Shown here: positions 5,190 to 28,773 of the stretch, piece after piece | Numbering within the stretch: the stretch's first letter is position 1 | How the letters are laid out: each line of letters starts with the position of its first letter | NCBI GenBank assembly: GCA_945861275.1 | Contig: CAMATZ010000002.1 | Location: 10,300-74,299 of the forward strand | Direction of reading: 5' to 3' | Source of the DNA: Bordetella parapertussis | GTDB taxonomy: Bacteria > Pseudomonadota > Gammaproteobacteria > Burkholderiales > SG8-41 | Length of the DNA stretch: 64,000 nucleotides | Position numbers and translations under genes: made by a program | The notes under the pieces: generated by a model | Told to the model about the DNA's origin: nothing | The model's input: the letters and a program-made list of their open reading frames with translations, nothing else | The model's database searches: none

Positions 5190-5236
5190 CGGATGGTGAA
5201 GGATGCCGGGATAATGGTTGACCTGATTGTCTGGAG

Positions 5237-6010: not shown

Positions 6011-6011
6011 A

Positions 6012-6848: not shown

Positions 6849-6868
6849 TGAAGCCTATGCAAAGCGGC

Positions 6869-7807: not shown

Positions 7808-7813
7808 TATTGC

Positions 7814-9301: not shown

Positions 9302-9362
9302 TACTTGAGACGCGATGGCGGGAACCTCGAAAAACCTTTATGATACAAGAGAATAAGAGTAA

Positions 9363-10655: not shown

Positions 10656-10664
10656 CAGCAACGC

Positions 10665-12143: not shown

Positions 12144-12144
12144 G

Positions 12145-13302
12145 TTGATAGATCAACGCTATTTGAGCTATTTGAGCCTGGCCGCCGCCGCCTGGGTGCT
12201 GGCCTATTTTGGTCTCACTTTGGTGGTAGACCCTTACGGCATTTCTCCGTTGAGTTGGAAAATTCCGGGCATCAACCAACACAAGCCTGCTCGTGTCGAT
12301 ATAGATCGCCAACTGAAGCCCTATGAAGTGTGGCGTTACCAGCCTTCCACGCTGTACCTGGGCACTTCGCGCATGCATCAGGCGATGGATCCGTCCGTGT
12401 TGAATGATTCGGCCTTTGCCACTGCCTATAACGCATCAATACCCGCCAGCACCCTGGAAATGAATGTCGAGCATCTAAGGGAATATGTGCGTATCAATCC
12501 GCGGCTGCGCAAGGTGGTGGTGGAGCTGTTTTTCTATAATTTCGCGGGCGCGAGCACGCAAGCTGCATCAACGCAGGGCACGGACTTTTTAAAGCGCTCA
12601 ACGGCGTTGTTCGTCAGCGCGGATACCTTTTGGGGGGCGCTAAAAACGCTGGCCAAAAACGCCGCTGGCCTCTGCCCCTGTTACGAAATCAAATCCGGCG
12701 GCCATTTCTTTTATCCGGAGGGACACGATCCGCGCGCCCAATTTGCCGGGTTCGCGGAGGGTGTCTGGAAGTTGCATCGTACGCGCAATGACTTCAAGTT
12801 GAACGATTCAGCGTTTAAAGCATTGACAGAAATGGTTTCGATCGCCCTGGAGCATGGGTTGGATATTCGCCTGATCTTGACCCCCAATCATGTCTACGAT
12901 GATTACTATCTTGATGCGGTGGGCGCATGGGACGCTGTCGAAGCATGGTTGCAGCGCCTTGCTGATATATCGCCCCTGCACAGCTTCGCGCAGCCGAACG
13001 CATGGACGCAGGAGTCGGTAAGTTCGCGCATGCGCCACTGGAATGATCCCTACCACTTCACCGTCCACACCGGGCGCGCCATGCAACTGGCGCTATTTCA
13101 GAGGCCGGTCGAGGGGACACCGGACGGGTTCTATGAACGGCTCACTCGCGACAAAATATCCGCGCATGTCGAAAGCCGAAGGCAGGCGGTTAAGTTATGG
13201 GCCGCTGCGCATCCGGATTTTGTCAAACAATTTCAGCAGGCGCGCGTGCGCCACGACGCTGCGGTTGTGCGGTTGCCGGACGCCAAACGACCTCGCCAGT
13301 AG
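12145..13302 (+). CDS. hypothetical membrane-anchored protein, probable extracytoplasmic partner of the MBOAT acyltransferase
   Basis: 385 aa. TTG start 1 nt after the MBOAT stop. One N-terminal TM segment (LSLAAAAWVLAYFGLTLVV). I recognise no catalytic motif; the role is inferred from position only. Confidence 0.45.
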   Translation: MIDQRYLSYLSLAAAAWVLAYFGLTLVVDPYGISPLSWKIPGINQHKPARVDIDRQLKPYEVWRYQPSTLYLGTSRMHQAMDPSVLNDSAFATAYNASIPASTLEMNVEHLREYVRINPRLRKVVVELFFYNFAGASTQAASTQGTDFLKRSTALFVSADTFWGALKTLAKNAAGLCPCYEIKSGGHFFYPEGHDPRAQFAGFAEGVWKLHRTRNDFKLNDSAFKALTEMVSIALEHGLDIRLILTPNHVYDDYYLDAVGAWDAVEAWLQRLADISPLHSFAQPNAWTQESVSSRMRHWNDPYHFTVHTGRAMQLALFQRPVEGTPDGFYERLTRDKISAHVESRRQAVKLWAAAHPDFVKQFQQARVRHDAAVVRLPDAKRPRQ

Positions 13303-13323
13303 CGGTCAGGTCGATGCGCCGGA

Positions 13324-14844: not shown

Positions 14845-14885
14845 GATGATGTCCCCGATGATGGCTGCCGAAACAGTCTCGGGCG

Positions 14886-16073
14886 CTATCCCTGTCCTTT
14901 CGCGTCTGCGGGCGACACCAACGCAATGGACAGGCCACGCAGCCGATTGCGTATGGATTGCGCAACGGTTTGCACAAAAGCCAGGTACACGGTTACACCC
15001 GCGGGCACTTCCGCAGGCTTCAGAATTGGGCGTCCCATGTGGGTGTGGCCTTCACGCGCGGGATCTTCATCAACAAAAAATTCAACATTGCCGCCCAGGC
15101 CATGCGCCAGCCAGGTCGCGGCAACCGAGGTGCCGAATATCGCGAAGCGCCCCGTTTGGCTGGATTTTAACGCGTGATTGAGCATTCCCGTCAGCCAGCC
15201 GACGTCCTCGCGAGTTCGTTCCAGCGCCTGCCGCGGGTCGTGAGGATGAGGCGCGGATGGCCCAGCGCCGGCTGATGCAAGCAGCGAAATCTCCTTGTGG
15301 ACCCAATCCGTTTTTAATAGAGCGGCGTTCAACCCCGCGCGGGCGGTCATTGCGGCCAGCGTTTCCGGGGTGAAATGACACAGGTGGTCGGCGACAACCA
15401 GATCAAACGGCGTTATGCCCGCATTGTTGACCTGCACAAACAAGTGGCCACCGGCATTCATTCTGCTGCCTAGCGTACGCAGCATGGCGAGTGGTTCGGC
15501 GAAATGTTCCAGCGAGTGAATGAGCGTAAGCAGATCAAATTGTTGAGACAGTTGGTCGGGCGCGGCCGTGTAGAGTTTTTCGAAACGCGGAATGGCTTTG
15601 AGCGCCGGTTCCTTGCGGCTGTCAAGGTCAAGGCCGAACAAACGCCAGACGCTACTCGCCTGTGAAAAAGCACCGAGCATGGCGCCACTGCCCGCGCCGA
15701 CGTCAAGCAAGGTGCCCTGCACCGGCAGCACGCCGGATTGCAGCAGGTGGCGCGCCAACACCGAACAGCGCCCGCTTGGGCGTCCGCTCAGCGGATCAAA
15801 CACCATCTGATCGTTGGCCGATGATTGATGGTACATCTCATAATCGCGGTAAATTTCATTGATTTCCGCCAACCATAATCCGTCGGCGATTTTCTGTACC
15901 AGACCGCAACCCATACACACGAATAGCCGCCCGCCGGATCGAAATGGCTTGCTGTCCGAGGTCACGCGGGGCAGTTGCGGGAAGCCTGCGATTTCATGCA
16001 ATTCACTGGCGTCGCAGGCTTGACAGCGGGTGGGGGCAGGAGCGGGCATGGTTACGACGGGATTCACTGCCAT
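14886..16073 (-). CDS. class I SAM-dependent methyltransferase with Zn-ribbon and C-MT-type C-terminal domain
   Basis: 395 aa. CQAC...CMGCG ribbon, LLDVGAGSGAM SAM motif I, C-terminal FAIFGTSVAATWLAHGLG. Third paralogue of this architecture. Confidence 0.72.
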   Translation of the reverse strand: MAVNPVVTMPAPAPTRCQACDASELHEIAGFPQLPRVTSDSKPFRSGGRLFVCMGCGLVQKIADGLWLAEINEIYRDYEMYHQSSANDQMVFDPLSGRPSGRCSVLARHLLQSGVLPVQGTLLDVGAGSGAMLGAFSQASSVWRLFGLDLDSRKEPALKAIPRFEKLYTAAPDQLSQQFDLLTLIHSLEHFAEPLAMLRTLGSRMNAGGHLFVQVNNAGITPFDLVVADHLCHFTPETLAAMTARAGLNAALLKTDWVHKEISLLASAGAGPSAPHPHDPRQALERTREDVGWLTGMLNHALKSSQTGRFAIFGTSVAATWLAHGLGGNVEFFVDEDPAREGHTHMGRPILKPAEVPAGVTVYLAFVQTVAQSIRNRLRGLSIALVSPADAKGQG

Positions 16074-16217: not shown

Positions 16218-16802
16218 ATGTTGCACGTTGCCAAATATTTTGCTCAGGTCAATACCATCGCCGCGACCATCGACCAGCGCGCGGTGGAGTCGATGGCCCA
16301 TGCACTGGCAGCGCTGCGTGCTGCGGGCGGCAGGTTATTTTTTATCGGCGCCGGCGGCAGTGCGGGAAATTGTGGGCATGCGGTGAACGATTTCCGCAAG
16401 CTGTGCGGCATTGAAGCTTATGCACCGACAGACAATGTGTCGGAATTGACGGCGCGCACCAATGACGAAGGCTGGGAAACGGTTTTCGCGGCGTGGCTGG
16501 TGACCAGCAAACTCTCGGAAAAAGATGGGGTATTTGTTTTTTCGGTCGGCGGCGGGGATCTTGAACGCAACGTCAGCCCCAACATCGTGCGCGCGCTGGA
16601 ACTTGCCAAAAAACGCAATGCGCGAATTTTCGGCGTGGTGGGACGCGACGGCGGCTATACCAAAAAAGTGGGGGACCACGTGATTGTGATTCCTACTGTC
16701 GATCCCGCGCATGTCACGCCGCACACCGAGGCTTTTCACGCGGTGGTATGGCACTGCCTGGTGTCGCACCCCAAGCTGCAACAAAATGCCACGAAATGGT
16801 AG
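16218..16802 (+). CDS. gmhA: SIS-domain sedoheptulose-7-phosphate isomerase
   Basis: 194 aa. GRLFFIGAGGSAGNCGHAVNDF and VFVFSVGGG are SIS/GmhA motifs. Confidence 0.78.
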   Translation: MLHVAKYFAQVNTIAATIDQRAVESMAHALAALRAAGGRLFFIGAGGSAGNCGHAVNDFRKLCGIEAYAPTDNVSELTARTNDEGWETVFAAWLVTSKLSEKDGVFVFSVGGGDLERNVSPNIVRALELAKKRNARIFGVVGRDGGYTKKVGDHVIVIPTVDPAHVTPHTEAFHAVVWHCLVSHPKLQQNATKW

Positions 16803-16835
16803 TGCATGCGCCCGCTAAACCCGGAGGCGCGTTAG

Positions 16836-17375
16836 TTGCGCCGCGCGGTTTTTCTGGATCGGGACGGCGTTATCAATCGCTGCGTGGTGCGCAATGGCAA
16901 GCCGTACGCGCCTCAAAGCGCGAAAGACTTTCGCTTGTTGCCGCGCGCGGCGGCCGCGGTGCAGGAGTTGAAGGCGGCGGGTTTTCTGGTAATTGTCGTG
17001 ACAAATCAACCGGATATCGGTAACGGTTTGGTGGATGCCGCAGTGGTCGCGGCGATGCACGCCAAGTTGGCGCGACGTGTCGCAGTAGACGACATTCGCA
17101 CCTGCCCGCATCGCCAGAACGAAAATTGCGGCTGCCGCAAACCGGCTGCGGGATTATTGCTGGAGGCTGCTGCCTGGTGGCAAATTGACCCGCAAAAGAG
17201 CTTCATGGTTGGCGACCGATGGAGTGACATCGTTGCCGGCCAAGCCATTGGATGTTATAGTATTTTCCTTGATCGTGGGTATCTGGAGACCCGCCAAATA
17301 ACGCGGCGGCTTGTCCCTGACGGTCGCGCTAAATCCCTCCCTGCAGCCGTGCGTTTGATACGCGCCCTGGCGTAA
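16836..17375 (+). CDS. gmhB: HAD-IIIA heptose 1,7-bisphosphate phosphatase
   Basis: 179 aa. AVFLDRDGVIN (DxD nucleophile motif), VVTNQPDIG, a CxC...RKP Zn-binding loop, and MVGDRWSD. Confidence 0.78.
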   Translation: MRRAVFLDRDGVINRCVVRNGKPYAPQSAKDFRLLPRAAAAVQELKAAGFLVIVVTNQPDIGNGLVDAAVVAAMHAKLARRVAVDDIRTCPHRQNENCGCRKPAAGLLLEAAAWWQIDPQKSFMVGDRWSDIVAGQAIGCYSIFLDRGYLETRQITRRLVPDGRAKSLPAAVRLIRALA

Positions 17376-17411
17376 AACGGTAACCCCGTAACACAAGAAT
17401 CGTTTTGGACA

Positions 17412-18131
17412 GTGCTCATGAATAACTTGCGGGTCAAGATTTTTGCTGATGGCGCGGACTTTGACGGCATCATGAAAATGTATGCCAACCCTTTGATCAA
17501 GGGCTTCACTACCAATCCCACCCTGATGCGCAAGGCCGGTGTAACGGATTACGAGGCGTTTGCCCGTAAACTGCTTAAAGCAATTCCCGACCGGCCGGTA
17601 TCTCTGGAAGTGTTTGCAGACGAATTCGACGCCATGGAGCAGCAGGCAATGGCGATTGCCGCCTGGGGCAAGAACGTCAACGTAAAAATCCCGGTGACCA
17701 ACAGCCGCCGCGAGTTTTCCGGACCGTTGATCAAAAAACTTTCCGCCGCGGGCGTCGCGCTCAATGTGACGGCGGTGTTTACCCTTGATCAGGTGCGGCG
17801 CGTGACCGAGTGTCTGGCGGACGAGACCCCCGCCATTGTGTCGGTGTTTGCCGGCAGAATTGCCGACACCGGCATCGATCCGGTGCCCTTAATGACCGAG
17901 GCGGTGGCGGTGTTAAAGGCGAGGCCAAAGGCTGAGTTGATCTGGGCAAGCCCGCGCGAGTTGCTCAATATCTTTCAGGCCGATGAGATTGGCTGCCATA
18001 TTATTACCGTTACCAACGATATTCTCGGCAAATTGCCGCTGGTGGGCAAAAATCAGGACGATTATTCGCTGGAGACCGTTCAGATGTTTTACCGCGATGC
18101 GATTGCCGCGGCATTTTCGATAAAAACCTGA
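17412..18131 (+). CDS. transaldolase family protein (short TalC/Fsa-like type)
   Basis: 239 aa. KIFADGADFDGI...IKGFTTNPTLMRKAG and NVNVKIPVT (Schiff-base Lys region). Confidence 0.82.
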   Translation: MLMNNLRVKIFADGADFDGIMKMYANPLIKGFTTNPTLMRKAGVTDYEAFARKLLKAIPDRPVSLEVFADEFDAMEQQAMAIAAWGKNVNVKIPVTNSRREFSGPLIKKLSAAGVALNVTAVFTLDQVRRVTECLADETPAIVSVFAGRIADTGIDPVPLMTEAVAVLKARPKAELIWASPRELLNIFQADEIGCHIITVTNDILGKLPLVGKNQDDYSLETVQMFYRDAIAAAFSIKT

Positions 18132-18163
18132 TTGAAATTATTGTTGTTTATTTTTGAGGACGC

Positions 18164-19159
18164 ATGAAAAACATACTGATCACGGGTGGCGCGGGTTATG
18201 TCGGGTGCGTGCTTACACCGCAACTGCTCAAGGCCGGCTACAACATCACGATTTACGACACCATGTGGTACGGCAATCATTTGCCCAAGAGCCCGAATTT
18301 GAAAATCATCGAAGGCGACATTCGCGATACCAGCAAATTGGCGGGCGCCTTTAACGGCATCGAAGCGGTAATCTCATTGGCCTGCATTTCAAATGATGCC
18401 AGCTTTGAGCTCGATGAAAAACTCAGCACCAGTGTCAATCTGGACGCGTTTGAACCGATGGTGATGGCCGCCAAAAAGGCAGGCGTGCAGCGTTTTGTTT
18501 ATTGCTCGTCGAGCTCGGTATACGGCGTCTCGGACCAGCCCAATGTGACCGAAGATCATCCGCTGCTGCCGGTATCGCTCTACAACAAGTACAAGGGCAT
18601 GTGCGAGCCCTTGTTGTGGAAGCATCAAGGCCCGGGGTTTACCTGCGTCGCCATCCGTCCCGCCACGGTTTGCGGCTATAGCCCGCGCACGCGGCTTGAT
18701 CTGTCGGTCAATATCCTGACCAATCACGCGGTGAACAATAACAAGATCACAGTCTACGGCGGCTCGCAGTTGCGCCCCAACCTGCATATACAGGACATGT
18801 GCAATCTGTACCAGATGCTGCTGGAATTGCCCGCTGAAAAAATTGCCGGACAGACCTTCAATGCGGGCTATCAGAATCTGAGCATCATGGAAATCGCGGA
18901 AATTGTGCGTAAAGTGGTGAAAGAAGAATTCCCCGAAAAAGGCGAGATCGAGATTGTCACCACGCCTTCGGACGACATTCGTTCCTATCACATCAATTCC
19001 GACAAGATTGCCAATGTGATTGGGTTTCGCCCCCAGCACACCATCGAAGACGCCGCGCGTGATTTGTGCAAGGCGATCAAGGCCGGCAAGTTGCCGGACA
19101 GCTTTAACGACGACGTCTATTTCAACGTCAAACGCATGAAGCGCCTGGGTATCACATGA
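18164..19159 (+). CDS. NAD-dependent epimerase/dehydratase (extended SDR)
   Basis: 331 aa. ILITGGAGYVGCVL and SLYNKYK (YxxxK). Confidence 0.8.
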   Translation: MKNILITGGAGYVGCVLTPQLLKAGYNITIYDTMWYGNHLPKSPNLKIIEGDIRDTSKLAGAFNGIEAVISLACISNDASFELDEKLSTSVNLDAFEPMVMAAKKAGVQRFVYCSSSSVYGVSDQPNVTEDHPLLPVSLYNKYKGMCEPLLWKHQGPGFTCVAIRPATVCGYSPRTRLDLSVNILTNHAVNNNKITVYGGSQLRPNLHIQDMCNLYQMLLELPAEKIAGQTFNAGYQNLSIMEIAEIVRKVVKEEFPEKGEIEIVTTPSDDIRSYHINSDKIANVIGFRPQHTIEDAARDLCKAIKAGKLPDSFNDDVYFNVKRMKRLGIT

Positions 19160-20157
19160 CGGCGCGGCCCATCGCCGTGGTGACCGGCGGTGCAGGGTTT
19201 ATCGGCAGTCACATGGTGGATAACCTGCTCGCCCATGGCTATGTCGTGCGCGCGGTGGATAACCTCATCAGCGGCCGCGAAAGCAACCTGGCCCACCTCT
19301 CCGGCAACACGGATTTTTCGTTTGACCGCGCCGATATACGCAGCCTCGAACCGGGCCATGCGCTGTTTGGCCAGGCGCAACTGGTGTTTCATTTTGCGGG
19401 CATCGGCGACATCGTGCCGTCGATCGAACGCCCGCTCGAGTACATGTCGGCCAATGTGCAGGGCACGGCACATGTGCTGGAGTGCGCGCGCCATGCATCC
19501 GTGAAAAAATTGGTTTATGCGGCATCGTCATCCTGCTATGGGCTGGCCGCAACACCTACCCGCGAAGACCATCCGATACAGCCGCTGTATCCTTACGCAT
19601 TAAGCAAATACATGGGAGAGCAAGCGTGCTTTCACTGGCACAAGGTGTACGGCTTGCCGGTAAACGCCATCCGCATTTTTAATGCCTATGGCACAAGGGT
19701 TAGAACGACCGGGGCCTATGGTGCTGTGTTCGGTGTGTTCTTCCGCCAGAAGCTTGCGGGTAAGCCCTACACAGTGGTGGGCGACGGCGCGCAACGGCGC
19801 GACTTTCTGTATGTCACCGATGTTGCGGAAGCATTCCGGCTCGCGGGCGAAACCGCGAAAACCGGCGAAGTATGGAATCTGGGTGCGGGTAATCCACAGT
19901 CCGTGAATCATCTGACGGACTTGCTGGGCGGCGAAAAAATTTCGATTCCCAAGCGCCCCGGGGAACCGGATTGCACGTGGGCGAACATTACCAAAATCGT
20001 GACCGACCTGGGCTGGAAGCAAAAAATTTCATTTGAACAGGGCGTTGCGCTGATGATGCAGGAAATCGACGTGTGGCGCGATGCGCCGCTGTGGGATCCT
20101 GATTCCATAGAACAGGCCACGGCAACGTGGTTTCGCTATATGGGGGCACGCACGTGA
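19156..20157 (+). CDS. NAD-dependent epimerase/dehydratase (UDP-glucose 4-epimerase/decarboxylase-like SDR)
   Basis: 333 aa. VVTGGAGFIGSHMV and YPYALSKYMGE. ATGA overlap with the upstream gene. Confidence 0.8.
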   Translation: MTARPIAVVTGGAGFIGSHMVDNLLAHGYVVRAVDNLISGRESNLAHLSGNTDFSFDRADIRSLEPGHALFGQAQLVFHFAGIGDIVPSIERPLEYMSANVQGTAHVLECARHASVKKLVYAASSSCYGLAATPTREDHPIQPLYPYALSKYMGEQACFHWHKVYGLPVNAIRIFNAYGTRVRTTGAYGAVFGVFFRQKLAGKPYTVVGDGAQRRDFLYVTDVAEAFRLAGETAKTGEVWNLGAGNPQSVNHLTDLLGGEKISIPKRPGEPDCTWANITKIVTDLGWKQKISFEQGVALMMQEIDVWRDAPLWDPDSIEQATATWFRYMGART

Positions 20158-21710
20158 GCGTACTGGCTTCACTGTCGGAGAAATACCGCCACAAGATCAA
20201 GACGGTAGACGAATTGATCGCGGCCATCGGGCCGCGTCCGCGGGTTAAAAAAGTAATCATGTGTCACGGCGTGTTTGACGTGGTACATCCCGGACACCTG
20301 CGTCACCTGCTCTACGCGAAAAACAAGGCCGATATCCTGGTCACCAGCATTACCGCGGATGCGCACATCAGCAAAGGCGTGTATCGCCCGCATGTGCCGC
20401 AGGATTTGCGTGCGCTCAATCTGGCGGCATTCGAGACCGTGGATTATGTGTTGATCGATCAAAACGCAACGCCGCTGGAGAACATAGCGCGCCTGCAGCC
20501 GGATTTTTTCGCCAAAGGCTACGAATACACCGAAAGCGGCGTCGCCCAGAAAACACTGGAAGAAGCGGAAATACTTCGCCGCTACGGCGGCGAAATCATC
20601 TTCACCCCCGGCGATATTGTTTATTCATCGTCGAGTCTGATCAATTTGGCGCCGCCGTCGATACGCACCGAAAAGCTGCTGACCTTCATGGAAAATGAGC
20701 AGCTGACCTTCGACTCTCTGCGTAACAGTCTGTCGCAACTCAAGGGCAAGCGGGTGCATGTCATTGGCGACACCATCGTTGATAGCTACACGCAGACCGC
20801 CATGATCGGCGGACAAACCAAAACCCCCACCATGAGCGTGCTGTATGAGCGGCGCGATGATTTCATCGGCGGCGCCGCGGTGGTGGCGGAACATCTGCGC
20901 GCGGCAGGTGCGGAAGTCTATTTTTCCACCGTGTTGGGCGACGACAAGCTCAAGGACTTTGTGCTGGCGGGGCTGGCGAAATCCGGGGTAACGTGCAATC
21001 CCATCATCGACGCGACACGGCCTACCACCAATAAGAACGCCATCGTCGCCGGCGGCTACCGGCTGCTGAAAATTGACACGCTGGATAACCGCTCGATCTC
21101 GGATGAGATCGTGCAGAAGCTGAAAAATACCATTAGTTCCATCGCCTGCGATGCGGTGGTATTCAGCGATTTCCGCCACGGCATTTTCAACCGGCGCACC
21201 ATACCCGCGCTGATCTCGGGCATTCCGGCGGGCGTGTACAAAGTTGCCGATAGCCAGGTGGCCAGCCGCTGGGGCAACATCACCGAATTCAAGGGGTTTG
21301 ATCTGATCACCCCCAACGAGCGGGAAGCGCGATTTGCGCTCGCCGATCAGGATTCCGGCATTCGTCCGCTGGCATCAACACTGTATGACACGGCGCAATG
21401 TAAAACGCTGATCCTCAAGCTGGGCGAACGCGGCGTGCTAACGTGCCGCAGCAGCGATCATGAATCACTCGATTCGTTCGTGGTGGTGGATAGCTTTGCC
21501 GATCATGTAGTCGACGCCGTGGGCGCGGGCGACGCCTTGCTTGCCTATGCCACTTTGTCGAAGCTGACCACAGGTTCTGATGCAGTGGCCACCATACTCG
21601 GCTCGCTGGCGGCAGCTTGCGAATGTGAGTACGACGGGAACATACCCATTACGCCGGAAGATGTCCGCCGCAAGCTGGACGCCATCGAGCGGCAGGCCCA
21701 CTACACCTGA
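20154..21710 (+). CDS. bifunctional sugar-phosphate nucleotidyltransferase (N-terminal) / PfkB carbohydrate kinase (C-terminal), HldE-like with reversed domain order
   Basis: The N-terminal CHGVFDVVHPGHLRHL is the HxGH cytidylyltransferase-fold motif. The C-terminal half is ribokinase-like with DAVGAGDALLA (PfkB signature 2). GTG 20154 overlaps the upstream TGA; the ORF-track start is 20127. Confidence 0.78.
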   Translation: MSVLASLSEKYRHKIKTVDELIAAIGPRPRVKKVIMCHGVFDVVHPGHLRHLLYAKNKADILVTSITADAHISKGVYRPHVPQDLRALNLAAFETVDYVLIDQNATPLENIARLQPDFFAKGYEYTESGVAQKTLEEAEILRRYGGEIIFTPGDIVYSSSSLINLAPPSIRTEKLLTFMENEQLTFDSLRNSLSQLKGKRVHVIGDTIVDSYTQTAMIGGQTKTPTMSVLYERRDDFIGGAAVVAEHLRAAGAEVYFSTVLGDDKLKDFVLAGLAKSGVTCNPIIDATRPTTNKNAIVAGGYRLLKIDTLDNRSISDEIVQKLKNTISSIACDAVVFSDFRHGIFNRRTIPALISGIPAGVYKVADSQVASRWGNITEFKGFDLITPNEREARFALADQDSGIRPLASTLYDTAQCKTLILKLGERGVLTCRSSDHESLDSFVVVDSFADHVVDAVGAGDALLAYATLSKLTTGSDAVATILGSLAAACECEYDGNIPITPEDVRRKLDAIERQAHYT

Positions 21711-21719
21711 GCGCCTGAG

Positions 21720-22652
21720 ATGCGTGCCATCGTCGTGGGCCTCGGCGTTCAGGGCAACAAGCGCCGCAAGTTCGCCGGTGCGGATTTCGTCTGCGCGGTT
21801 GATCCGGTCAATCCCGAAGCCCAATACAAAAAGATCGAGGACGTTCCGCTCGGAGACTACGATGCAGCCTTAGCGTGCATCCCCGACGAGCCGAAGATAG
21901 CGGTGCTTAGCTATCTTCTGCGCAACGGCAAACACGTGCTGGTGGAAAAACCGCTGTGGGCTGCGGATGACGCAGAAATTCAGCAACTCGAGAACCTGGC
22001 GCGTGCCGGCAATGCCGTTTGTTACACCGCTTACAACCATCGCTTCGAGCCGCATTACGCACGTATGCGTGAGCTGATTCAATCCGGAAAATTGGGCACT
22101 ATCTACCGTTGCCGCATGTTTTACGGTAATGGGACGGCACGCCTGGTGCGCGACTCGGCGTGGCGCGATCAGGGCGCCGGCGTGCTGCCCGACCTCGGTT
22201 CGCATCTACTCGACACCGCAAAATTCTGGTTTGGCGAGGTCGGCAACGATTTTCAGGTGATCGCAGCGCATTGCCATGAGAATCGTTCGCCCGACCACGT
22301 CGTCATTCTTTCCAAACGCACACAGCCGGTGATCGAACTGGAAATGTCGCTGCTGTCATGGCGCAACCACTTTACCTGCGATATTTTTGCCGAAAAAGGC
22401 ACCGCGCATATCCGCTCCCTGTGCAAATGGGGGCCGGCCACATTTACCCACCGCACGCGCGTGCTCCCCTCGGGACGGCCTGCCGAGGAAGTGGAAACGC
22501 TGGAACAAGAGGATCCGACGTGGGCGCTTGAGTATGCGCATTTCAAGTCACTCTGTGCGCAAGCCCAAGCCACCAGCCTGGCCAACGACCTGTGGCTGAA
22601 TAAACTATTGCGCGATTTGGGCGCGGTCGCCATCAAGGAGGCTGCAACGTGA
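21720..22652 (+). CDS. Gfo/Idh/MocA family oxidoreductase
   Basis: 310 aa. MRAIVVGLGVQG...HVLVEKPL N-terminal Rossmann motif and EKP motif. Confidence 0.78.
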   Translation: MRAIVVGLGVQGNKRRKFAGADFVCAVDPVNPEAQYKKIEDVPLGDYDAALACIPDEPKIAVLSYLLRNGKHVLVEKPLWAADDAEIQQLENLARAGNAVCYTAYNHRFEPHYARMRELIQSGKLGTIYRCRMFYGNGTARLVRDSAWRDQGAGVLPDLGSHLLDTAKFWFGEVGNDFQVIAAHCHENRSPDHVVILSKRTQPVIELEMSLLSWRNHFTCDIFAEKGTAHIRSLCKWGPATFTHRTRVLPSGRPAEEVETLEQEDPTWALEYAHFKSLCAQAQATSLANDLWLNKLLRDLGAVAIKEAAT

Positions 22653-23920
22653 GCAAGCCGGTGATAGGCTTTGCGGGCATGACGCATCTGGGCATCAACT
22701 CTGCCGCAGGCGCCTTGGGCCACGGCTTTGAGACCGTGTGTTTTGACGCCGATTGCGCGCTTATACAGCGCCTTAAAGCGGGCGAACTGCCGGTAAGCGA
22801 ACCGGGGTTGCCGGAGTTGCTCAATCAACACACCGGGAGAGCGCTTTATACCGACGCCATAGCAAACCTGTCACTCTGCGATGTGGTGTATATCGCCACC
22901 GACGTGCCTACCGATGATCAGGGCGAGAGTGATCTTTCCGGCATATCGTTACTGATCAAGCAGGTGGCGGCAGTACTGGCGCCTCACGCCGTATTGGTGG
23001 TGCTGTGTCAGGTGCCGCCGGGATTCACACGCGGCCTTGCGGTGCCTGTGCAACGCCTGTTCTATCAGGTTGAAACACTGGTGTTCGGCCGCGCCGTCGA
23101 GCGCGCCATGCAGCCGGAACGTTTTATTGTCGGTTGTGCCGATGCGGCAGCCGCGCTGCCCGTGGCGTACCTGGAATTTCTGCAGTCGTTCGCCTGCCCC
23201 TTGCTGCTGATGCGTTATGAAAGTGCGGAGCTGGCGAAGATCGCGATCAATTGTTGTTTGGTGGCATCGGTGACAGTGGCGAATACACTGGCCGGTGTGG
23301 CGGAACGCATCGGCGCCAACTGGCATGAGATAGTGCCGGCACTCAAGCTCGACCGCCGTATCGGCCCCCACGCGTACCTCGCGCCGGGGCTGGGCCTTGC
23401 CGGCGGCAATCTTGAACGTGACCTGGCTACGGTATTGCGCCTGGCGGGCGAAACCGGCAGCGAAGTCAGCCTGATTGAAGCGTTTGTGACGAACAGCCGC
23501 CATTGCCGGGACTGGGTGTTGCGCGCGCTGCATCGCGAAGTGTTCGGGGTGAATCCACATCCCGCGATCAGCGTGCTCGGACTCGCCTACAAAGAAAACA
23601 CCCGCTCCACGAAAAATTCGCCATCACTGGCGTTGCTTGAAAACCTGAAACCGTGGCCGCTACGCGTATACGATCCAGCGGTAGTCGTTTGCGCTGACTA
23701 TCATCCGCAACTCACCGGCTGCGCGTCGGCGCTGGACGCGGTGGCCGGCACCGATGTGCTGATTATCATGACGCCGTGGCCGGAATTTCGCGAGCTTAAG
23801 CCCGCCGCGTTGGCCGCCGCCATGAACGGACGACTGGTAATAGATCCCTACCGCATGCTGGATGGCGAGGCCCTGGTTAAGGCCGGGTTGCGTTACCTGA
23901 CGCTGGGCAGCTCACAATAA
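22649..23920 (+). CDS. UDP-glucose/GDP-mannose dehydrogenase family nucleotide-sugar dehydrogenase
   Basis: 423 aa. IGFAGMTHLG N-terminus, central helical domain, and C-terminal LGLAYKENTRSTKNSP typical of the UDPG_MGDP_dh family. GTGA overlap upstream. Confidence 0.78.
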   Translation: MSKPVIGFAGMTHLGINSAAGALGHGFETVCFDADCALIQRLKAGELPVSEPGLPELLNQHTGRALYTDAIANLSLCDVVYIATDVPTDDQGESDLSGISLLIKQVAAVLAPHAVLVVLCQVPPGFTRGLAVPVQRLFYQVETLVFGRAVERAMQPERFIVGCADAAAALPVAYLEFLQSFACPLLLMRYESAELAKIAINCCLVASVTVANTLAGVAERIGANWHEIVPALKLDRRIGPHAYLAPGLGLAGGNLERDLATVLRLAGETGSEVSLIEAFVTNSRHCRDWVLRALHREVFGVNPHPAISVLGLAYKENTRSTKNSPSLALLENLKPWPLRVYDPAVVVCADYHPQLTGCASALDAVAGTDVLIIMTPWPEFRELKPAALAAAMNGRLVIDPYRMLDGEALVKAGLRYLTLGSSQ

Positions 23921-23937
23921 AACCGTACAATCATCCA

Positions 23938-24807
23938 ATGCTGACTCACGAAAACCCAACCCCAATAAAACCCCGCCGGGTGGTCATCATCGGCGCCGGT
24001 GGCTTTGTCGGCGGCGCCATCCGCAAAGCGCTGTTGTCCCAAGCGATCGACGTGCTCGCGTTAACGCGCAAGGAACTCGATCTGCTGGCCGGCGGCGCAG
24101 CAGAAAAATTGGCGCACCTGCTGCGGCCTGACGACAGCGTGGTGATGGTATCGGCGATCGCGCCGGTAAAGACCGTGCCGATGCTGATGCAAAACCTCGC
24201 GATGGCGGAAGCCGTGTGTGCGGCACTGTCGCAGGCGCCGATTGCGCATCTGCTGTATATCAGTTCGGACGCGGTTTACAGCGACGACGCAAATCCGGTC
24301 ACCGAGTCCTCCGCCTGCGCGCCGTCCACCCTGCACGGCATGATGCACGCCGCGCGTGAGCTGATGTTAAAGAGCGCGGCCGCAGCGCCGCTCGCCTGCT
24401 TGCGTCCGACGCTGATCTACGGCGCGGCTGATCCGCATGGCGGCTATGGTCCCAATCGCTTTCGCCGGCAAGCGGATAAGGGTGAACCCATTTCAATATT
24501 CGGCGAAGGCGAAGAGCGTCGCGATCATATTGCGGGTGAGGATGTGGCCGCGCTCGCGACGTTGATGCTGACCCACAAGAGCCGTGGCGCGCTGAACGCC
24601 GTTACCGGGATTTCTACTTCCTTCAGCGACATCGCGCAAATCGTGGCGCAACTGCACGGCGGCACGGTAAAAAGCGTGCCTCGACCCGGCCCGCGGCCAC
24701 ACCTGCTGCACCGGTTTTTCGATATTACGAATTGTCATAAAGCGTTTCCTGAATTTCGCTTTACGCCGTTGGCGGCAGGCCTGGCTCGCGCCAGAGCCAG
24801 CCACTGA
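23938..24807 (+). CDS. NAD-dependent epimerase/dehydratase (SDR)
   Basis: 289 aa. VVIIGAGGFVGGAI Rossmann motif. Confidence 0.72.
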   Translation: MLTHENPTPIKPRRVVIIGAGGFVGGAIRKALLSQAIDVLALTRKELDLLAGGAAEKLAHLLRPDDSVVMVSAIAPVKTVPMLMQNLAMAEAVCAALSQAPIAHLLYISSDAVYSDDANPVTESSACAPSTLHGMMHAARELMLKSAAAAPLACLRPTLIYGAADPHGGYGPNRFRRQADKGEPISIFGEGEERRDHIAGEDVAALATLMLTHKSRGALNAVTGISTSFSDIAQIVAQLHGGTVKSVPRPGPRPHLLHRFFDITNCHKAFPEFRFTPLAAGLARARASH

Positions 24808-24818
24808 GGAGAGTTGCC

Positions 24819-25472
24819 GTGGCTGAGATCAATCTGCTGGCGCGTTTGCCTACCATCAAACGCAATATCGAAAAACGCAAGGAAGCACAGACCGCGGAAA
24901 ATATTGCCATTTCGCGGCAATACGGAGAGCAATATTTCGACGGGCCGCGCGAAGTGGGTTACGGCGGCTATCGCTACGATGGCCGGTGGATGCCGGTGGC
25001 CGAGGACTTCATCCGCCATTTCAATCTCAAGCCCGGCGACCGGGTGCTGGATGTGGGTTGCGCGAAGGGGTTTCTGGTCAAGGACCTGATGAAAGTATGC
25101 CCCGGACTGGAGGCGTTCGGGCTGGACATTTCCGAGTACGCGCTGATGCATTGCGAGCGCGAACTAGCCGGCCGGCTGCATCTGGGCAGCGCCGACAAAT
25201 TGCCGTTTCCAGACAACAGCTTCAATGCCGTAATTTCACTGAATACGATACACAACTTTGAACGGCATGATGCGGTGCGGGCGGTGCGCGAGATCGAGCG
25301 GCTCGCGCCGGGAAAAGGGTTTATCCAAGTCGACTCGTATCGCACGCCCGAGCAGCGCGCGCTTTTCATGAGTTGGGTTTTGACCGCTAAATTTCATGAC
25401 TATCCCGACGGCTGGATCAAGCTCTTTGGCGAAGCGGGCTATACGGGCGACTGGTTCTGGACTATACTTTAG
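24819..25472 (+). CDS. class I SAM-dependent methyltransferase (Methyltransf_11-like)
   Basis: 217 aa with a GTG start. VLDVGCAKGFLVKDL motif I and FNAVISLNTIHNF. Confidence 0.78.
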   Translation: MAEINLLARLPTIKRNIEKRKEAQTAENIAISRQYGEQYFDGPREVGYGGYRYDGRWMPVAEDFIRHFNLKPGDRVLDVGCAKGFLVKDLMKVCPGLEAFGLDISEYALMHCERELAGRLHLGSADKLPFPDNSFNAVISLNTIHNFERHDAVRAVREIERLAPGKGFIQVDSYRTPEQRALFMSWVLTAKFHDYPDGWIKLFGEAGYTGDWFWTIL

Positions 25473-25505
25473 CAGACGTAACTAATTGTTTTAAAAGGAA
25501 TATTA

Positions 25506-26495
25506 ATGAAGACCTACGCTGTCCTCGGCGCCGGCGGCTCGTTTGGCATCCACACCGCGCTGTATTTGCTGGACCACGCCGATCCCAAAAAGGTGATCGG
25601 CATAGGCCGCAATCCGCTGCGTCCGGAACCGTTTTCGCTGAATATCGAGAAGCGCAAAAATTTCAGCTACCACGCCTATCACATCACCTATGAGTTGGAC
25701 TCGGTGCTTGAAGTGCTGGATAAGGAAAAACCCCAAGTCATTATTAATTATGCCGCGCAAGGTGAAGGCGCGGTGTCGTGGAAAAAATCGTGGCGCTTCT
25801 TCGAGACCAATTCCATGGCGCTCGCCAAATTGAGCGAGGAACTGATGTCCCGGGATTATCTGGAGCGCTTCATTCAGATTGGTACGTCCGAACTCTATGG
25901 CTCAGTGGATTTTGCAGCTAAAGAAACCACACCGATACAGGCCACCAGCCCCTACGCCGCTTCGAAAGCGGCGTTTGACATGTACCTGATGTCGGCGCAC
26001 CGTTTTCTGAAGTTTCCGATGAATATCATACGTCCCTCCAATGCGTATTGCCCCGGTCAACTGTTGCATCGTGTGATTCCCAAAACCATAGTTTGTGGAT
26101 TGACCGGCCGCAAGCTGCCGTTGCAAGGCGGCGGGCGTGCCGAGAAATCCTACATTCATGCGCGTGATTTGGCGCGCGCCGTATTGCTGGTGTCGGAGAA
26201 AGCGCCCCTGGGTGCGATTTACAACGCCGGCCCCAAGGATCCGACATCGATACGCCGGGTGGTTGAACTGACGGCACAGGCACTGGGTATGCCGTTTGAA
26301 CAATTGTGTGAAATGACTGGAGATCGACTGGGTCAGGACTCGCGCTACTGGCTGGATTCCAGCGCCATCAAGAAAGACGTGGGTTGGGAGCCGCAAATCA
26401 GTTGGGAGGAAGGGCTTGCGGAAATGGTGGCGTGGGGCCGCAAGTACATCGATCAATTGCACGACTGGCCCACTGATTACGTGTTGCGGGCGTGA
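25506..26495 (+). CDS. NDP-sugar 4,6-dehydratase-like extended SDR
   Basis: 329 aa. AVLGAGGSFG, IQIGTSELYGS and SPYAASKAAFDMYL follow the SYK triad layout of RmlB-type dehydratases. Confidence 0.75.
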   Translation: MKTYAVLGAGGSFGIHTALYLLDHADPKKVIGIGRNPLRPEPFSLNIEKRKNFSYHAYHITYELDSVLEVLDKEKPQVIINYAAQGEGAVSWKKSWRFFETNSMALAKLSEELMSRDYLERFIQIGTSELYGSVDFAAKETTPIQATSPYAASKAAFDMYLMSAHRFLKFPMNIIRPSNAYCPGQLLHRVIPKTIVCGLTGRKLPLQGGGRAEKSYIHARDLARAVLLVSEKAPLGAIYNAGPKDPTSIRRVVELTAQALGMPFEQLCEMTGDRLGQDSRYWLDSSAIKKDVGWEPQISWEEGLAEMVAWGRKYIDQLHDWPTDYVLRA

Positions 26496-27355
26496 GCTTG
26501 AGCCCTTCATCGCACACTATGACGAATCCTGCTGCGGCACTGGATGTGGCGGCGGCACGGCGCCGCTGCCTGCAATACCGCCGCCGCATCCTTGATATCT
26601 CGCAGCAAGTCAGCGCGCTGCATGTGGCGCCGGCATTCTCCTGTCTGGAAATGGTGGATGTGGTGTATCACGGTTTGATGCGGCGTGATCCCGCGTCCGC
26701 TGCGGCTGCGTTCCTCGATGGTTTTGTCATGTCCAAGGGCCACGGCTGTCTTTCGCAGTACGTGATGCTCGAAGAACTGGGCATTTTAATGCGTGATGAT
26801 CTTGCCGCGTATTGCACCCCCGCCGGACGGCTGGGCGCGCATCCCGACTACGGCGTGCCCGGCATCGAGGCATCGACCGGTTCGCTGGGTCACGGCATGG
26901 GCATATCTACCGGCATGGCGTATGCGGAAAAAATCAAAGATACCGACCGGCAGATGTATGTGGTGTTGTCGGATGGAGAAATGCAGGAGGGATCGACCTG
27001 GGAGTCGATGATGATGGCGGCGAATCTGGGGCTGGACAACCTGATCGCGCTGCTGGATTTGAACGATTTTCAGGGTCTGGGGCGCACCTCCGAGACCCAT
27101 CCGCGCTTTTATCCGATACTCGACAAAGTGCAGGCCTTCGGCTGGGAAGCGGTGGAAGTCAATGGCCACGACGCAGCCGCCATACACCATGCGATAGTTT
27201 CGCGGCAGGGCGACAAGCCCTTTTTTCTGGTGGGCAAGACGGTAAAAGGCAAGGGCGTTTCCTACATGGAAAACGTTCCCATATGGCATTACCGCTCACC
27301 CAACAAGGACGAGTACCAAAAGGCCCTGGCGGAACTGGCCGAGGTGGGGTCGTGA
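26492..27355 (+). CDS. transketolase, N-terminal (ThDP pyrophosphate-binding) subunit
   Basis: 287 aa. SKGHGCLSQY, GSLGHGMGISTG and VVLSDGEMQEGSTWE are the ThDP GDG-type motif region of split transketolases. GTGA overlap upstream. Confidence 0.88.
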   Translation: MSLSPSSHTMTNPAAALDVAAARRRCLQYRRRILDISQQVSALHVAPAFSCLEMVDVVYHGLMRRDPASAAAAFLDGFVMSKGHGCLSQYVMLEELGILMRDDLAAYCTPAGRLGAHPDYGVPGIEASTGSLGHGMGISTGMAYAEKIKDTDRQMYVVLSDGEMQEGSTWESMMMAANLGLDNLIALLDLNDFQGLGRTSETHPRFYPILDKVQAFGWEAVEVNGHDAAAIHHAIVSRQGDKPFFLVGKTVKGKGVSYMENVPIWHYRSPNKDEYQKALAELAEVGS

Positions 27356-28269
27356 GAAACACCTTCGCCAATACTTTTTTCGAGGCGGCAAAACTCGACT
27401 CGCGCCTGTGCGTGATCGTCGCCGACATCTCGCCGGCGGGCGCGATGGACAAATTTCGCCAGACGTTTCCGCGGCGCTTCATCAACACCGGGGTGGCCGA
27501 GCAGGTGATGATCGGCATGTGTGCCGGCATGGCGCTGCGCGGGCTGAGACCTTTCGCCTACACCATCGCGACCTTCACGCTGTTCCGACCGTTTGAGTTT
27601 GTGCGTGATGATCTGTGCTACCACAACCTGCCGGTAACCATCGTCGGCATCGGCGGCGGCGTTACCTATTCCACGCTCGGCGGTACGCACCACGCACAGG
27701 AAGATGTGGCGATCGCAAGCGCGATTCCCAATATGGCGGTGATTGCGCCGTGCGATCCGGCGGAAACCACCGCCGCCACGCTGTGGTGTACCCGGCAGGA
27801 GCGCGGACCGGTATATCTGCGTCTGGGCAAGGCCGGGGAGCCTGATTTGACTTCCGGCGCCGCGGACCCCTTCGAGTTCGGGAAGATCCGTTATCTGCAA
27901 CGCGGACGCGACGTTTGCATCATCGGCTATGGATCAATACTGAAGCTGGGTAAGGATTTGGCGGCGGCCTTTGAGCGTCAGGGTAAATCCGTGTCGCTGA
28001 TCTCGGCGCATACCATCACGCCGTTTGACCAGGCGGGCGTAGCGGCGGCGTTACACGCGCACAAACAAGTCGTGGTGATTGAAGAAATGGTGCCTCACGG
28101 CGGGCTGGGTTCGCGGGTCAAGGAGGTGGCGTGGGACTCGCGCGCGAGCTGCCGGCTGGATGCGTTTTCGCTGAAAGCGGAATTCATCCACAACTACGGC
28201 AGCCACGGCGATTTGTTGGCGGCTCACGGGCTGGATCTGAAATCACTGTCCGCGGCACTGGGCTTGTAG
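27352..28269 (+). CDS. transketolase, C-terminal (pyrimidine-binding) subunit
   Basis: From GTG 27352 (GTGA overlap): VRNTFANTFFEAA...FINTGVAEQVMIGMCAGMALRG...HHAQEDVAI. The ORF-track start 26812 is a spurious upstream extension overlapping the N-terminal subunit in another frame. Confidence 0.88.
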   Translation: MRNTFANTFFEAAKLDSRLCVIVADISPAGAMDKFRQTFPRRFINTGVAEQVMIGMCAGMALRGLRPFAYTIATFTLFRPFEFVRDDLCYHNLPVTIVGIGGGVTYSTLGGTHHAQEDVAIASAIPNMAVIAPCDPAETTAATLWCTRQERGPVYLRLGKAGEPDLTSGAADPFEFGKIRYLQRGRDVCIIGYGSILKLGKDLAAAFERQGKSVSLISAHTITPFDQAGVAAALHAHKQVVVIEEMVPHGGLGSRVKEVAWDSRASCRLDAFSLKAEFIHNYGSHGDLLAAHGLDLKSLSAALGL

Positions 28270-28305
28270 TTGCGCCGCGGACCGGTTGCCGGGACCCACG
28301 GCTAA

Positions 28306-28773
28306 ATGGCTGAACCGGTTTTTCTCACGGCTGAGGACAAGTTGCGCGGTGACGACGCCGTCGCCGCCTTGCTGGTGCTTGACGATGGCCGCTATGTGAT
28401 GCAATTGCGTGACGCGATTCCGCGGATTTTCTACCCTGGACATTGGGGTTGTTTCGGCGGCGCTGTCGAGGAGGGAGAAGAACCTGAACTCGCGCTGCGG
28501 CGGGAACTCGCCGAGGAAATAGAATTTGCAGCGGGCACAATGACAGAATTCACGCGCTTTGATTTTGACTTGCGCGGTCTGGGCCAAAAGAAAGTGTACC
28601 GGATTTTTTACGAAGTGCCGATCACGCAGGCAGCACTCGCAAAACTGGTGTTACACGAAGGCGCTGCATACCAGGTATTCAGCGGCGCGCAACTTTTGCA
28701 GGAAAGACACGTAACGCCGTACGATGCCTTCGCCATTTTGTTGCATTACCGGCGCGAGCGCTTTCAGCCTTGA
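28306..28773 (+). CDS. NUDIX hydrolase
   Basis: 155 aa. Complete Nudix box GGAVEEGEEPELALRRELAEEIEF. Last gene of the plus-strand glycan operon. Confidence 0.82.
   Translation: MAEPVFLTAEDKLRGDDAVAALLVLDDGRYVMQLRDAIPRIFYPGHWGCFGGAVEEGEEPELALRRELAEEIEFAAGTMTEFTRFDFDLRGLGQKKVYRIFYEVPITQAALAKLVLHEGAAYQVFSGAQLLQERHVTPYDAFAILLHYRRERFQP

Follow-up and report, generated by a model that had tools for sequence, protein, structure and literature searches.

The 64,000-nucleotide window analyzed here (contig CAMATZ010000002.1, positions 10,300 to 74,299, from an assembly labelled Bordetella parapertussis) contains, at 16218–28773, a block of 14 back-to-back plus-strand genes that combines sugar-activation enzymes with a transaldolase (TAL), a split transketolase (TK), and a series of tailoring enzymes. 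With moderate confidence, we interpret this block as a conserved mobile cassette, apparently the one known from the lipopolysaccharide (LPS) region of Coxiella burnetii, which would make an activated, heavily tailored heptose-class sugar of the O-antigen type from central sugar phosphates, and in which the TK of the present variant would add a two-carbon (C2) unit. The listing of open reading frames (ORFs), together with Pfam and NCBIfam scans, gave the following genes, where SDR stands for short-chain dehydrogenase/reductase, NDP for nucleoside diphosphate, and ThDP for thiamine diphosphate:

g01, 16218..16802, plus strand: SIS-domain, GmhA-like ketose-phosphate isomerase of a divergent subfamily (Pfam SIS_2)
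g02, 16836..17375, plus strand: HAD-IIIA phosphatase, GmhB/histidinol-phosphatase-like (Pfam HAD families; TIGR01656, 134 bits)
g03, 17412..18131, plus strand: transaldolase of the TIGR02134 type, probable start ATG 17418 (TAL_FSA, E 2e-42)
g04, 18164..19159, plus strand: extended SDR, NDP-heptose C4-dehydrogenase-like (Pfam Epimerase)
g05, 19156..20157, plus strand: extended SDR of the 4-epimerase type (WbpP/WbgU/UDP-GlcA epimerase-like), with Y147xxxK151
g06, 20154..21710, plus strand: N-terminal nucleotidyltransferase fused to a C-terminal PfkB sugar kinase, the HldE domains in reversed order
g07, 21720..22652, plus strand: Gfo/Idh/MocA oxidoreductase (Pfam GFO_IDH_MocA N and C domains)
g08, 22649..23920, plus strand: UDPG/MGDP-dehydrogenase family member with the catalytic cysteine missing (all three family domains)
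g09, 23938..24807, plus strand: atypical extended SDR (RmlD/Fcl-like fold) without the YxxxK dyad (Pfam Epimerase, RmlD_sub_bind)
g10, 24819..25472, plus strand: class I S-adenosylmethionine (SAM)-dependent methyltransferase (Methyltransf_11/25)
g11, 25506..26495, plus strand: NDP-sugar 4,6-dehydratase-type SDR, a variable tail gene (GDP_Man_Dehyd and dTDP-glucose 4,6-dehydratase matches)
g12, 26492..27355, plus strand: split transketolase, ThDP-binding N subunit (Transketolase_N)
g13, 27352..28269, plus strand: split transketolase, Pyr plus C-terminal subunit (Transket_pyr, Transketolase_C)
g14, 28306..28773, plus strand: NUDIX hydrolase, accessory (Pfam NUDIX)

A first-pass annotation of this DNA had counted 13 genes and overlooked the NUDIX gene at 28306–28773, which lies inside the block that it delimited. 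It had rightly placed all genes on the plus strand and recorded five 4-nt overlaps, every one of which is present: adjoining genes overlap by ATGA or GTGA at 19156, 20154, 22649, 26492, and 27352. The remaining intergenic gaps measure 9–36 nt, or 42 nt before g03 if that gene starts at ATG 17418. We call the block an operon because of strand, spacing, and overlaps; consensus scans of the block for promoters and terminators found no signal exceeding that of shuffled controls and add nothing to this label. The family scans also recovered the four SDRs, the single Gfo/Idh/MocA protein, the single member of the UDP-glucose dehydrogenase (UGDH) family, and the single methyltransferase that had been named before, and family profiles confirmed that the block holds its own TAL and a two-subunit TK.

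The block is far from unique. Thousands of homologues share the domain architecture of g06, with the best 120 being 78–98% identical to it, and a scan of species representatives (one genome per species) returned 283 g06 relatives, of which the best 80 loci, with g06 68–98% identical, were analyzed. These best 80 of 283 span at least five phyla, with carriers in Burkholderiales, Nitrospira/Nitrospirota, Acidobacteria, Gemmatimonadota, an Actinomycetota-labelled metagenome-assembled genome (MAG), Rhodospirillales (including Nisaea denitrificans DSM 18348, Azospirillum sp. TSO22-1, and a Magnetospirillum MAG), Hyphomicrobiales (including Labrys miyagiensis NBRC 101365), and a Coxiellaceae MAG (L070); a MAG contig labelled Bordetella (L001) is 90% identical to the window at the nucleotide level. 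Searches with the 14 proteins by tblastn found the g01–g11 order to be collinear in nearly all loci, and the complete ten-gene core g01–g10 occurs in 39 of the 49 loci that have both g01 and g10. The synteny that the first-pass annotation had proposed to look for in other genomes thus recurs in most of the best 80 loci and in several phyla. The flanking genes vary, no flanking family occurring in more than 12 loci, but they are nonetheless glycan genes: GT2 and GT41 glycosyltransferases, methyltransferases, DegT aminotransferases, and RmlD-like reductases. Because the cassette stays intact while its glycan flanks change, we read the block as one copy of a horizontally transferred sugar-synthesis module inserted into various polysaccharide loci. 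The proposal of a self-contained cassette for an activated, heavily tailored heptose-class sugar is supported by this conserved gene order and by the O-antigen-like context. Literature searches for a described cluster combining TAL, TK, and heptose genes returned nothing relevant.

Generic family assignments, taken alone, would also fit a coincidental neighborhood, in which TAL and TK are housekeeping genes that merely adjoin a polysaccharide locus. Against this stand the collinear order with 4-nt overlaps across dozens of genomes from several phyla and the intact state of the cassette among differing flanking genes. Moreover, TK is split here, whereas the housekeeping enzyme of proteobacteria is normally a single chain of ~660 residues. 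Because of the synteny, we regard coincidental adjacency as excluded and grant it hardly any probability. Both genes are specific to the cassette rather than stray housekeeping copies, TAL being present in 61 of the 63 loci spanning its slot and the cassette TKs forming one family with a median identity of 65% and a minimum of 51% across phyla.

The gene order has an apparent counterpart in a human pathogen. Beare et al. (2018) described CBU0678 of C. burnetii as homologous to HldE, with its domains in an unconventional, reversed arrangement; according to them, all phase II strains carry mutations in this gene, which is essential for phase I LPS and has an unknown function. Its neighbors include the phosphoheptose isomerase CBU0674 and the SDR epimerase/dehydratases CBU0676 and CBU0677. 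The supplement of Moses et al. (2017) annotates CBU_0673 as a histidinol-phosphatase, CBU_0678 as a nucleotidyltransferase, CBU_0679 as an NADH-dependent dehydrogenase, CBU_0681 as a member of the NAD epimerase/dehydratase family, and CBU_0682 as a methyltransferase, and the same authors list the horizontally acquired “pyruvate dehydrogenases” CBU_0686, 0692, and 0693, which by locus numbering lie inside the same LPS region. By these published annotations, the family order of CBU_0676–0682 (SDR, SDR, nucleotidyltransferase-kinase, NADH dehydrogenase, UDP-glucose dehydrogenase-like protein, weak SDR, methyltransferase) is that of g04–g10, and the upstream HAD protein CBU_0673 and SIS protein CBU_0674 belong to the same families as g02 and g01. 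In g06, as described for CBU0678, the CTP_transf_like domain precedes PfkB, and the mapped CBU0678 residues P74, G369, and active-site D455, taken from published positions, correspond to P79, G374, and D460 (of GAGD) in g06 at a constant offset of 5. The cassette is also carried by the Coxiellaceae MAG mentioned above. In the published view, the Coxiella block was gained by horizontal transfer from Alphaproteobacteria, and the role of CBU0678 is described as unclear in a review and a preprint that both date from 2026. Taken together, the annotations and the three residues strongly suggest that the cassette is the same module as cbu0673–0682. The cassette thus has an apparent counterpart in C. 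burnetii and is not previously unseen.

A comparison of the activation enzymes with those of the canonical heptose pathway gives a mixed result. The first-pass annotation had named GmhA, GmhB, and a kinase/nucleotidyltransferase, and as families these are correct, but none has the equivalog identity. Against NCBIfam cut-offs of 209 bits (TIGR00441, gmhA), 178 bits (NF006506, GmhB), and 521 bits (HldE), g01, g02, and g06 score 50, 124, and 143 bits, respectively, and the best-scoring SDR against HldD, g05, reaches 108.5 bits (TIGR02197, cut-off 274.6). The HldE architecture is also absent from g06, where the matches to rfaE domains II and I stand in swapped order: CTP_transf_like covers residues 46–146 and PfkB residues 239–507 in the numbering of a 527-residue ORF that starts at 20127 and is 9 residues longer than the version starting at 20154. 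The motifs HPGH, at residue 45, and GAGD, at 457–460, are present. The closest PDB matches of g01 are GmhA structures (E 3e-13), yet it has HAVND in place of the H..AE of GmhA (Glu to Asp), a Gln-to-Glu exchange, and a Ser-rich phosphate loop with a 6-residue insertion, and at least 95% of the 58 sequences aligned retain these deviations. The exchanged residues correspond to catalytic or metal-binding positions of GmhA, where the catalytic set includes Glu65 and Gln172.

The TAL is of a standard kind. Against TIGR02134, g03 scores 359 bits (curated cut-off 282), and when aligned to Thermoplasma acidophilum TAL it conserves Asp13, Glu66, the Schiff-base Lys92, Phe146, and the phosphate-binding Arg149. 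A fructose-6-phosphate aldolase (FSA type) was considered and rejected, as Phe146, the switch residue of the TAL type, is conserved and is not Tyr. The occurrence in 61 of 63 loci makes TAL a core member of the cassette pathway. Its canonical catalytic residues would fit either precursor supply or chain building, and its simplest predicted role is the formation of sedoheptulose-7-phosphate (S7P) from fructose-6-phosphate (F6P) and erythrose-4-phosphate (E4P).

A different product of TAL would be expected on an octose route, in which, as in lincosamide biosynthesis, the enzyme joins a C3 unit to ribose-5-phosphate (R5P) to give octulose-8-phosphate, so that an octose is activated and C2 addition would lead to C10. 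This route is compatible with either of the TK roles discussed below. It would explain why TAL is core to the cassette, which is needless if only the ubiquitous S7P is required; why the differences between the SIS enzyme and GmhA are invariant and fall precisely on catalytic residues and the phosphate loop; and why all activation enzymes fall far under the heptose equivalog cut-offs. Otherwise, carriers with LPS-core heptose would hold two redundant sets, and C. burnetii has both CBU1655 and CBU0678. However, none of the sequence features examined separates E4P from R5P as acceptor, the nucleotidyltransferase and kinase are of the HldE type rather than the GDP-type set of lincomycin biosynthesis, and the TIGR02134 family is presumably the ordinary TAL of Staphylococcus and Coxiella. 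We consider the octose route improbable and retain S7P as the simplest precursor.

The split TK has the sequence features of its class, namely separate N and Pyr-plus-C subunits, the ThDP/Mg motif, and the activating Glu. The closest PDB match of g12 is the N chain of the Carboxydothermus hydrogenoformans split TK (6yak, E 2e-46), that of g13 is the C chain (6yaj/6yak, E 5e-43), and the SDGE...N motif for ThDP and Mg in g12 as well as the cofactor-activating Glu of GVAEQ and the THH...ED motif in g13 are conserved. Its distribution, on the other hand, is unlike that of TAL. Among the 55 evaluable loci, that is, those with enough sequence downstream, 30 have a split TK, 13 have instead a pyruvate dehydrogenase E1 (PDH-E1) alpha/beta pair (defined as an E1_dh alpha subunit with a Transket_pyr/Transketolase_C beta subunit), 12 have neither, and none has both (Fisher p 3.6e-6, uncorrected for phylogeny). 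In most loci, the TK or the E1 pair is located directly after g11 or g14. TK is thus an accessory gene, unlike the core TAL. Because TK and E1 alpha/beta interchange at the same place, a ThDP-dependent C2 transfer onto the cassette sugar is favored as the role of TK over pentose-phosphate supply. The first-pass annotation had viewed TAL and TK as a private precursor supply and had put forward C2 branching by TK as the alternative. The former idea suits TAL, a core gene with canonical residues, but less so the accessory TK, which E1 pairs replace in 13 loci; the latter is favored by the TK/E1 interchange.

Pure precursor supply is the most substantial of the rival readings, although we consider it unlikely on the whole. 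According to it, TAL and the split TK form a private non-oxidative pentose-phosphate shunt that feeds S7P into a tailored heptose without ThDP-derived carbons: TK would convert F6P and glyceraldehyde-3-phosphate (G3P) to E4P and xylulose-5-phosphate (Xu5P), and TAL would convert E4P and F6P to S7P and G3P. By textbook stoichiometry, the two reactions combined give S7P from F6P alone (2 F6P to S7P and Xu5P). This agrees with a TAL whose canonical catalytic residues are complete and which has the Phe characteristic of transaldolases rather than aldolases, with a TK whose ThDP motifs are intact and whose closest match is a genuine split transketolase, and with the absence of TK from 25 of the 55 cassettes, as would be expected for a dispensable booster. 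It accords poorly with the position of TK at the tailoring end after g11, away from the TAL, SIS, and HAD genes, and with its replacement in 13 loci by PDH-E1 pairs, which are unable to make S7P and never accompany it. Furthermore, the cassette TKs are a single family that moves together with the cassette, its members sharing no less than 51% identity across phyla, and E1 alpha/beta also occurs on a plasmid of Azospirillum oryzae, in a distant cluster that has the same activation module but no TAL. We therefore prefer C2 transfer for TK.

The A. oryzae cluster is one of only two relatives returned by a plasmid search with g06, both ~31% identical and used as outgroup cluster types. It has a reversed HldE (31% identical to g06) and a SIS gene, carries E1 alpha/beta and a NUDIX gene, and lacks TAL and HAD genes; its g04-like and g05-like SDRs are 51% and 56% identical to their counterparts. 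This second, distantly related cluster type (plasmid NZ_CP054615.1, L081, locus 9884–22239) runs in the order SDR, g05-like SDR, reversed HldE, SIS, g04-like SDR, E1 alpha, E1 beta, two DegT aminotransferases, a hypothetical gene, radical-SAM, and NUDIX, and its product is probably a different, amino-branched higher sugar. The other relative, on a plasmid of Solidesulfovibrio carbinolicus, is a cluster of reversed HldE and SIS with a split TK nearby on the opposite strand. One cassette with neither TK nor E1 (L049) has a DAHP-synthase-I/NeuB-like gene for a phosphoenolpyruvate-dependent aldolase at 17958–19085, which adjoins the SIS gene and is followed by a GT41/TPR protein; this enzyme is of an aldehyde-extending class and may represent a third route to sugar-chain extension. 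The possibility that g11 and TK form a single co-travelling module was also examined, but the distance-matrix correlations were weak (Spearman 0.2–0.3) and were not used.

Among the tailoring enzymes, g08 departs from its family. This protein scores 188.4 bits against TIGR03026, marginally under the cut-off of 189.8, and has AGGNLERD where the UGDH family has GGxCxPKD. Asn254 occupies the position of the catalytic Cys in each of the 64 orthologues; Lys197, Asn201, and Asp258 are retained. The catalytic Cys that identifies four-electron 6-dehydrogenases of the UGDH/GDP-mannose dehydrogenase type is therefore missing, and for this reason we rejected a uronic-acid maker as the default assignment: the earlier listing of a UGDH-family modification enzyme holds as to family membership, but a uronic-acid product is not to be assumed. 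Given the absent Cys and the known mechanism of UGDH, g08 is probably an aldehyde-forming relative whose oxidation would halt before the acid. Aldehydes are natural acceptors of transketolase.

For g04, the closest PDB match is 6vo6/6vo8 (E 2e-34), the GDP-heptose C4-dehydrogenase Cj1427 of Campylobacter jejuni; the SSS...Y140xxxK144 residues are present, the acid pair of dehydratases is absent, and the 51% identical homologue lies in the A. oryzae plasmid cluster described above. The oxidoreductase g07 is kept in nearly all related loci. H133xxxH137 takes the place of YxxxK in g09, with H137 conserved in 57 of 57 orthologues; in the same alignment, Glu141 occurs in 56 of 57 sequences, and Arg140 is likewise invariant or almost invariant. 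The SDR g11 carries GTSELYG and Y150xxxK154, the TSE plus YxxxK signature of 4,6-dehydratases, and occurs in 25 of 30 TK loci, 11 of 13 E1 loci, and 6 of the 12 loci with neither. The NUDIX gene g14 is found in 19 of the 55 evaluable loci, and a homologue with 41% identity closes the distant A. oryzae cluster; control of the NDP-sugar pool is its probable role.

From the gene families, motifs, synteny, and TK/E1 interchange, all directly observed, we infer substrates, an order of steps, the nucleotide, and a product, as follows. TAL (g03) would provide a ketose phosphate, most simply S7P from F6P and E4P, which the GmhA-like g01 would isomerize to an aldose phosphate. The C-terminal PfkB domain of g06 would then phosphorylate C1, the HAD phosphatase g02 would take off the distal phosphate, and the N-terminal nucleotidyltransferase domain of g06 would form the NDP-sugar. 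Tailoring by g04, g05, g07, g09, and g10 would comprise oxidation, epimerization, reduction, and methylation, and g08 would oxidize a terminal alcohol to the aldehyde and no further. In the present variant, the g11 dehydratase and the g12/g13 TK would put a glycolaldehyde (C2) unit on a carbonyl of the NDP-sugar, either the terminal aldehyde or a 4-keto group, resulting in a C9 chain-extended or a C2-branched sugar. Finally, the NUDIX enzyme g14 would trim the NDP-sugar pool, and glycosyltransferases encoded nearby would use the product.

Several observations weigh against this interpretation. Both TK and TAL keep canonical catalytic motifs, and TK most resembles a bona fide split transketolase, so that ordinary sugar-phosphate chemistry would also be plausible; no transketolase is known to act on an NDP-sugar. 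The exclusivity of TK and E1 was assessed by a statistic that takes no account of shared ancestry, and 12 of the 55 cassettes have no ThDP enzyme at all, which places the C2 addition outside the core pathway. As to the Coxiella connection, the equation of the two modules draws on published annotations and three residues, not on aligned sequences, and C. burnetii is absent from the top 120 matches of a query with the orthologue of the Coxiellaceae MAG. Analyses of C. burnetii LPS, as summarized in the literature, report no modified heptose or C9 sugar.

A bolder version of the C2-transfer reading would have the Cys-less g08 generate a terminal aldehyde on an NDP-heptose or NDP-octose, to which TK, or in sister cassettes an E1 pair, adds a ThDP-bound C2 unit, so that the product is a C9–C10 chain-extended and possibly carbocyclic sugar of the caryose or bradyrhizose kind; such chemistry would also provide an as yet undetected component that the phase I O-antigen of C. 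burnetii requires. We attach little probability to this version as a whole. If true, its chemistry would be undescribed for any sugar pathway.

The cassette is preceded in the window by further polysaccharide genes, recorded as one feature:

Adjacent glycan genes, 65..16073, no single strand assigned: 4,6-dehydratase-like SDR, two TylCIII-type C-methyltransferases, RmlC, two GT2, O-methyltransferases, a Wzx-like flippase, MBOAT, two no-family proteins, and a Methyltransf_23 protein (Pfam)

These genes mark the cassette as part of an O-antigen or polysaccharide locus. Those at 65–6848 encode an SDR resembling GDP-mannose and CDP-glucose dehydratases, the two TylCIII-type proteins (Methyltransf_13/14), an RmlC 3,5-epimerase, a GT2 protein, and CmcI- and TylF-type O-methyltransferases, which together look like a toolkit for a C-methylated, O-methylated 6-deoxyhexose; the Coxiella region offers a parallel in CBU_0691, a TylCIII-like gene for which a role in virenose has been proposed. 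Two proteins, one of 506 residues at 13324–14844 (minus strand) and one of 385 residues at 12145–13302 (plus strand), have no Pfam or NCBIfam match. Homologues of the 506-residue protein occur in four related loci, one of them being L002, where the gene precedes the cassette, and its N-terminal “YDF/LxxxP” motif recurs in a second orphan family, from L078. The protein has zero predicted transmembrane segments and is a candidate for a dedicated transferase of the unusual sugar.

On its downstream side, the locus is bounded by opposite-strand genes for a dienelactone hydrolase and for F420 biosynthesis. The F420 genes (29504–34870, minus strand) form a complete-looking set of CofC, CofD, CofE/F420 ligase, an F420-dependent NADP oxidoreductase, and a fused CofG/CofH radical-SAM FbiC, followed by a luciferase-like monooxygenase; the set directly follows the cassette and is uncommon in Alcaligenaceae-type bacteria. 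Further away, a 1048-residue protein (59400–62546, plus strand) combines a PLD-like nuclease (PLDc_2/NgoFVII) with an SNF2/ResIII helicase, an architecture that looks like a defense or restriction enzyme. Six TctC/Bug periplasmic receptors are encoded within 21 kb (34909–35958, 36925–37926, 43731–44813, 51225–52196, 52714–53691, and 54823–55908), an expansion typical of Bordetella and Alcaligenaceae. Like the 90% nucleotide identity to the MAG contig labelled Bordetella, these receptors indicate that the host is an environmental betaproteobacterium of the Alcaligenaceae type.

Published annotations indicate that the Coxiella genes are part of the ten-gene core, which is spread among free-living Nitrospira, Burkholderiales, Rhodospirillales, and Hyphomicrobiales. 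Cultured and harmless carriers such as Nisaea denitrificans, Labrys miyagiensis, and Azospirillum sp. TSO22-1 thereby make a long-standing question about Q-fever LPS directly testable without containment. The analysis also raises the hypotheses of a transaldolase-primed activation, an aldehyde-forming UGDH relative, and an interchangeable ThDP slot; the last, if true, would be the first role of a transketolase in nucleotide-sugar tailoring, and many environmental O-antigens would contain the product as a new sugar.

Comparison with known systems places the cassette in the nucleotide-heptose pathway family as a biochemically uncharacterized member, while its apparent Coxiella counterpart is genetically famous. 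With the canonical ADP-heptose pathway it shares, by family, the SIS isomerase, the PfkB kinase, the HAD-IIIA phosphatase, and the cytidylyltransferase-like nucleotidyltransferase, and the common logic is likely to be ketose phosphate to aldose phosphate to 1,n-bisphosphate to 1-phosphate to NDP-sugar. It differs in that all four lie far under the equivalog cut-offs and the domain order of the fusion is reversed, and in that it further encodes a dedicated transaldolase together with eight tailoring enzymes and a ThDP enzyme. The GDP-heptose tailoring of the C. jejuni capsule, by Cj1427 and related enzymes, likewise subjects an NDP-heptose to SDR dehydrogenases, dehydratases, and reductases, with Cj1427 as the closest structural match of g04, but it relies on GDP/alpha-anomer activation and cupin epimerases and is not known to include a TAL, TK, Gfo/Idh/MocA, or UGDH-like protein. 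The lincosamide octose pathway is, as far as known, the only sugar pathway whose GmhA/GmhB-like activation sequence begins with a transaldolase encoded in the cluster: it comprises the transaldolase LmbR, the isomerase LmbN, the kinase LmbP, the phosphatase LmbK, and the nucleotidyltransferase LmbO, families that are paralleled here. It belongs, however, to antibiotic biosynthesis in Streptomyces and uses GDP activation.

Photosynthetic Bradyrhizobium has an 11-gene operon whose dTDP-glucose-4,6-dehydratase is required for the bicyclic C10 O-antigen sugar bradyrhizose, with a sugar kinase/cytidylyltransferase and a phosphoheptose isomerase nearby. We rejected this locus as the same cassette, because the 120 best homologues of g06, like those of a Pseudolabrys orthologue, include no Bradyrhizobium protein and the listed gene order differs, and we treat it as an analogous system. 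Branched sugars offer a parallel to the ThDP slot. ThDP carboligation is a general route to branched LPS sugars, and the E1 alpha/beta-like pairs AviB1/B2 and Pau11/12 have been genetically implicated and proposed as installers of C2 branches on 4-keto sugars. As in these and in YerE-type pathways, a ThDP enzyme is here encoded beside a 4,6-dehydratase in a sugar cluster, and 13 sister cassettes bear E1 alpha/beta pairs of the AviB type. The cluster in the window, by contrast, contains neither an E1 alpha/beta-like nor a YerE-like enzyme, but a TK-type split enzyme, whose donor would be a ketose or hydroxypyruvate (a glycolaldehyde unit) and not pyruvate; the literature on ThDP branched-sugar pathways yielded no sugar-branching role for a split enzyme of this type. 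The nearest system is the cbu0673–cbu0683 region of C. burnetii, which lies in an LPS locus where a TylCIII-type C-methyltransferase is likewise encoded; the window differs from it in having a split transketolase and a NUDIX gene, whereas the Coxiella region has E1-type genes.

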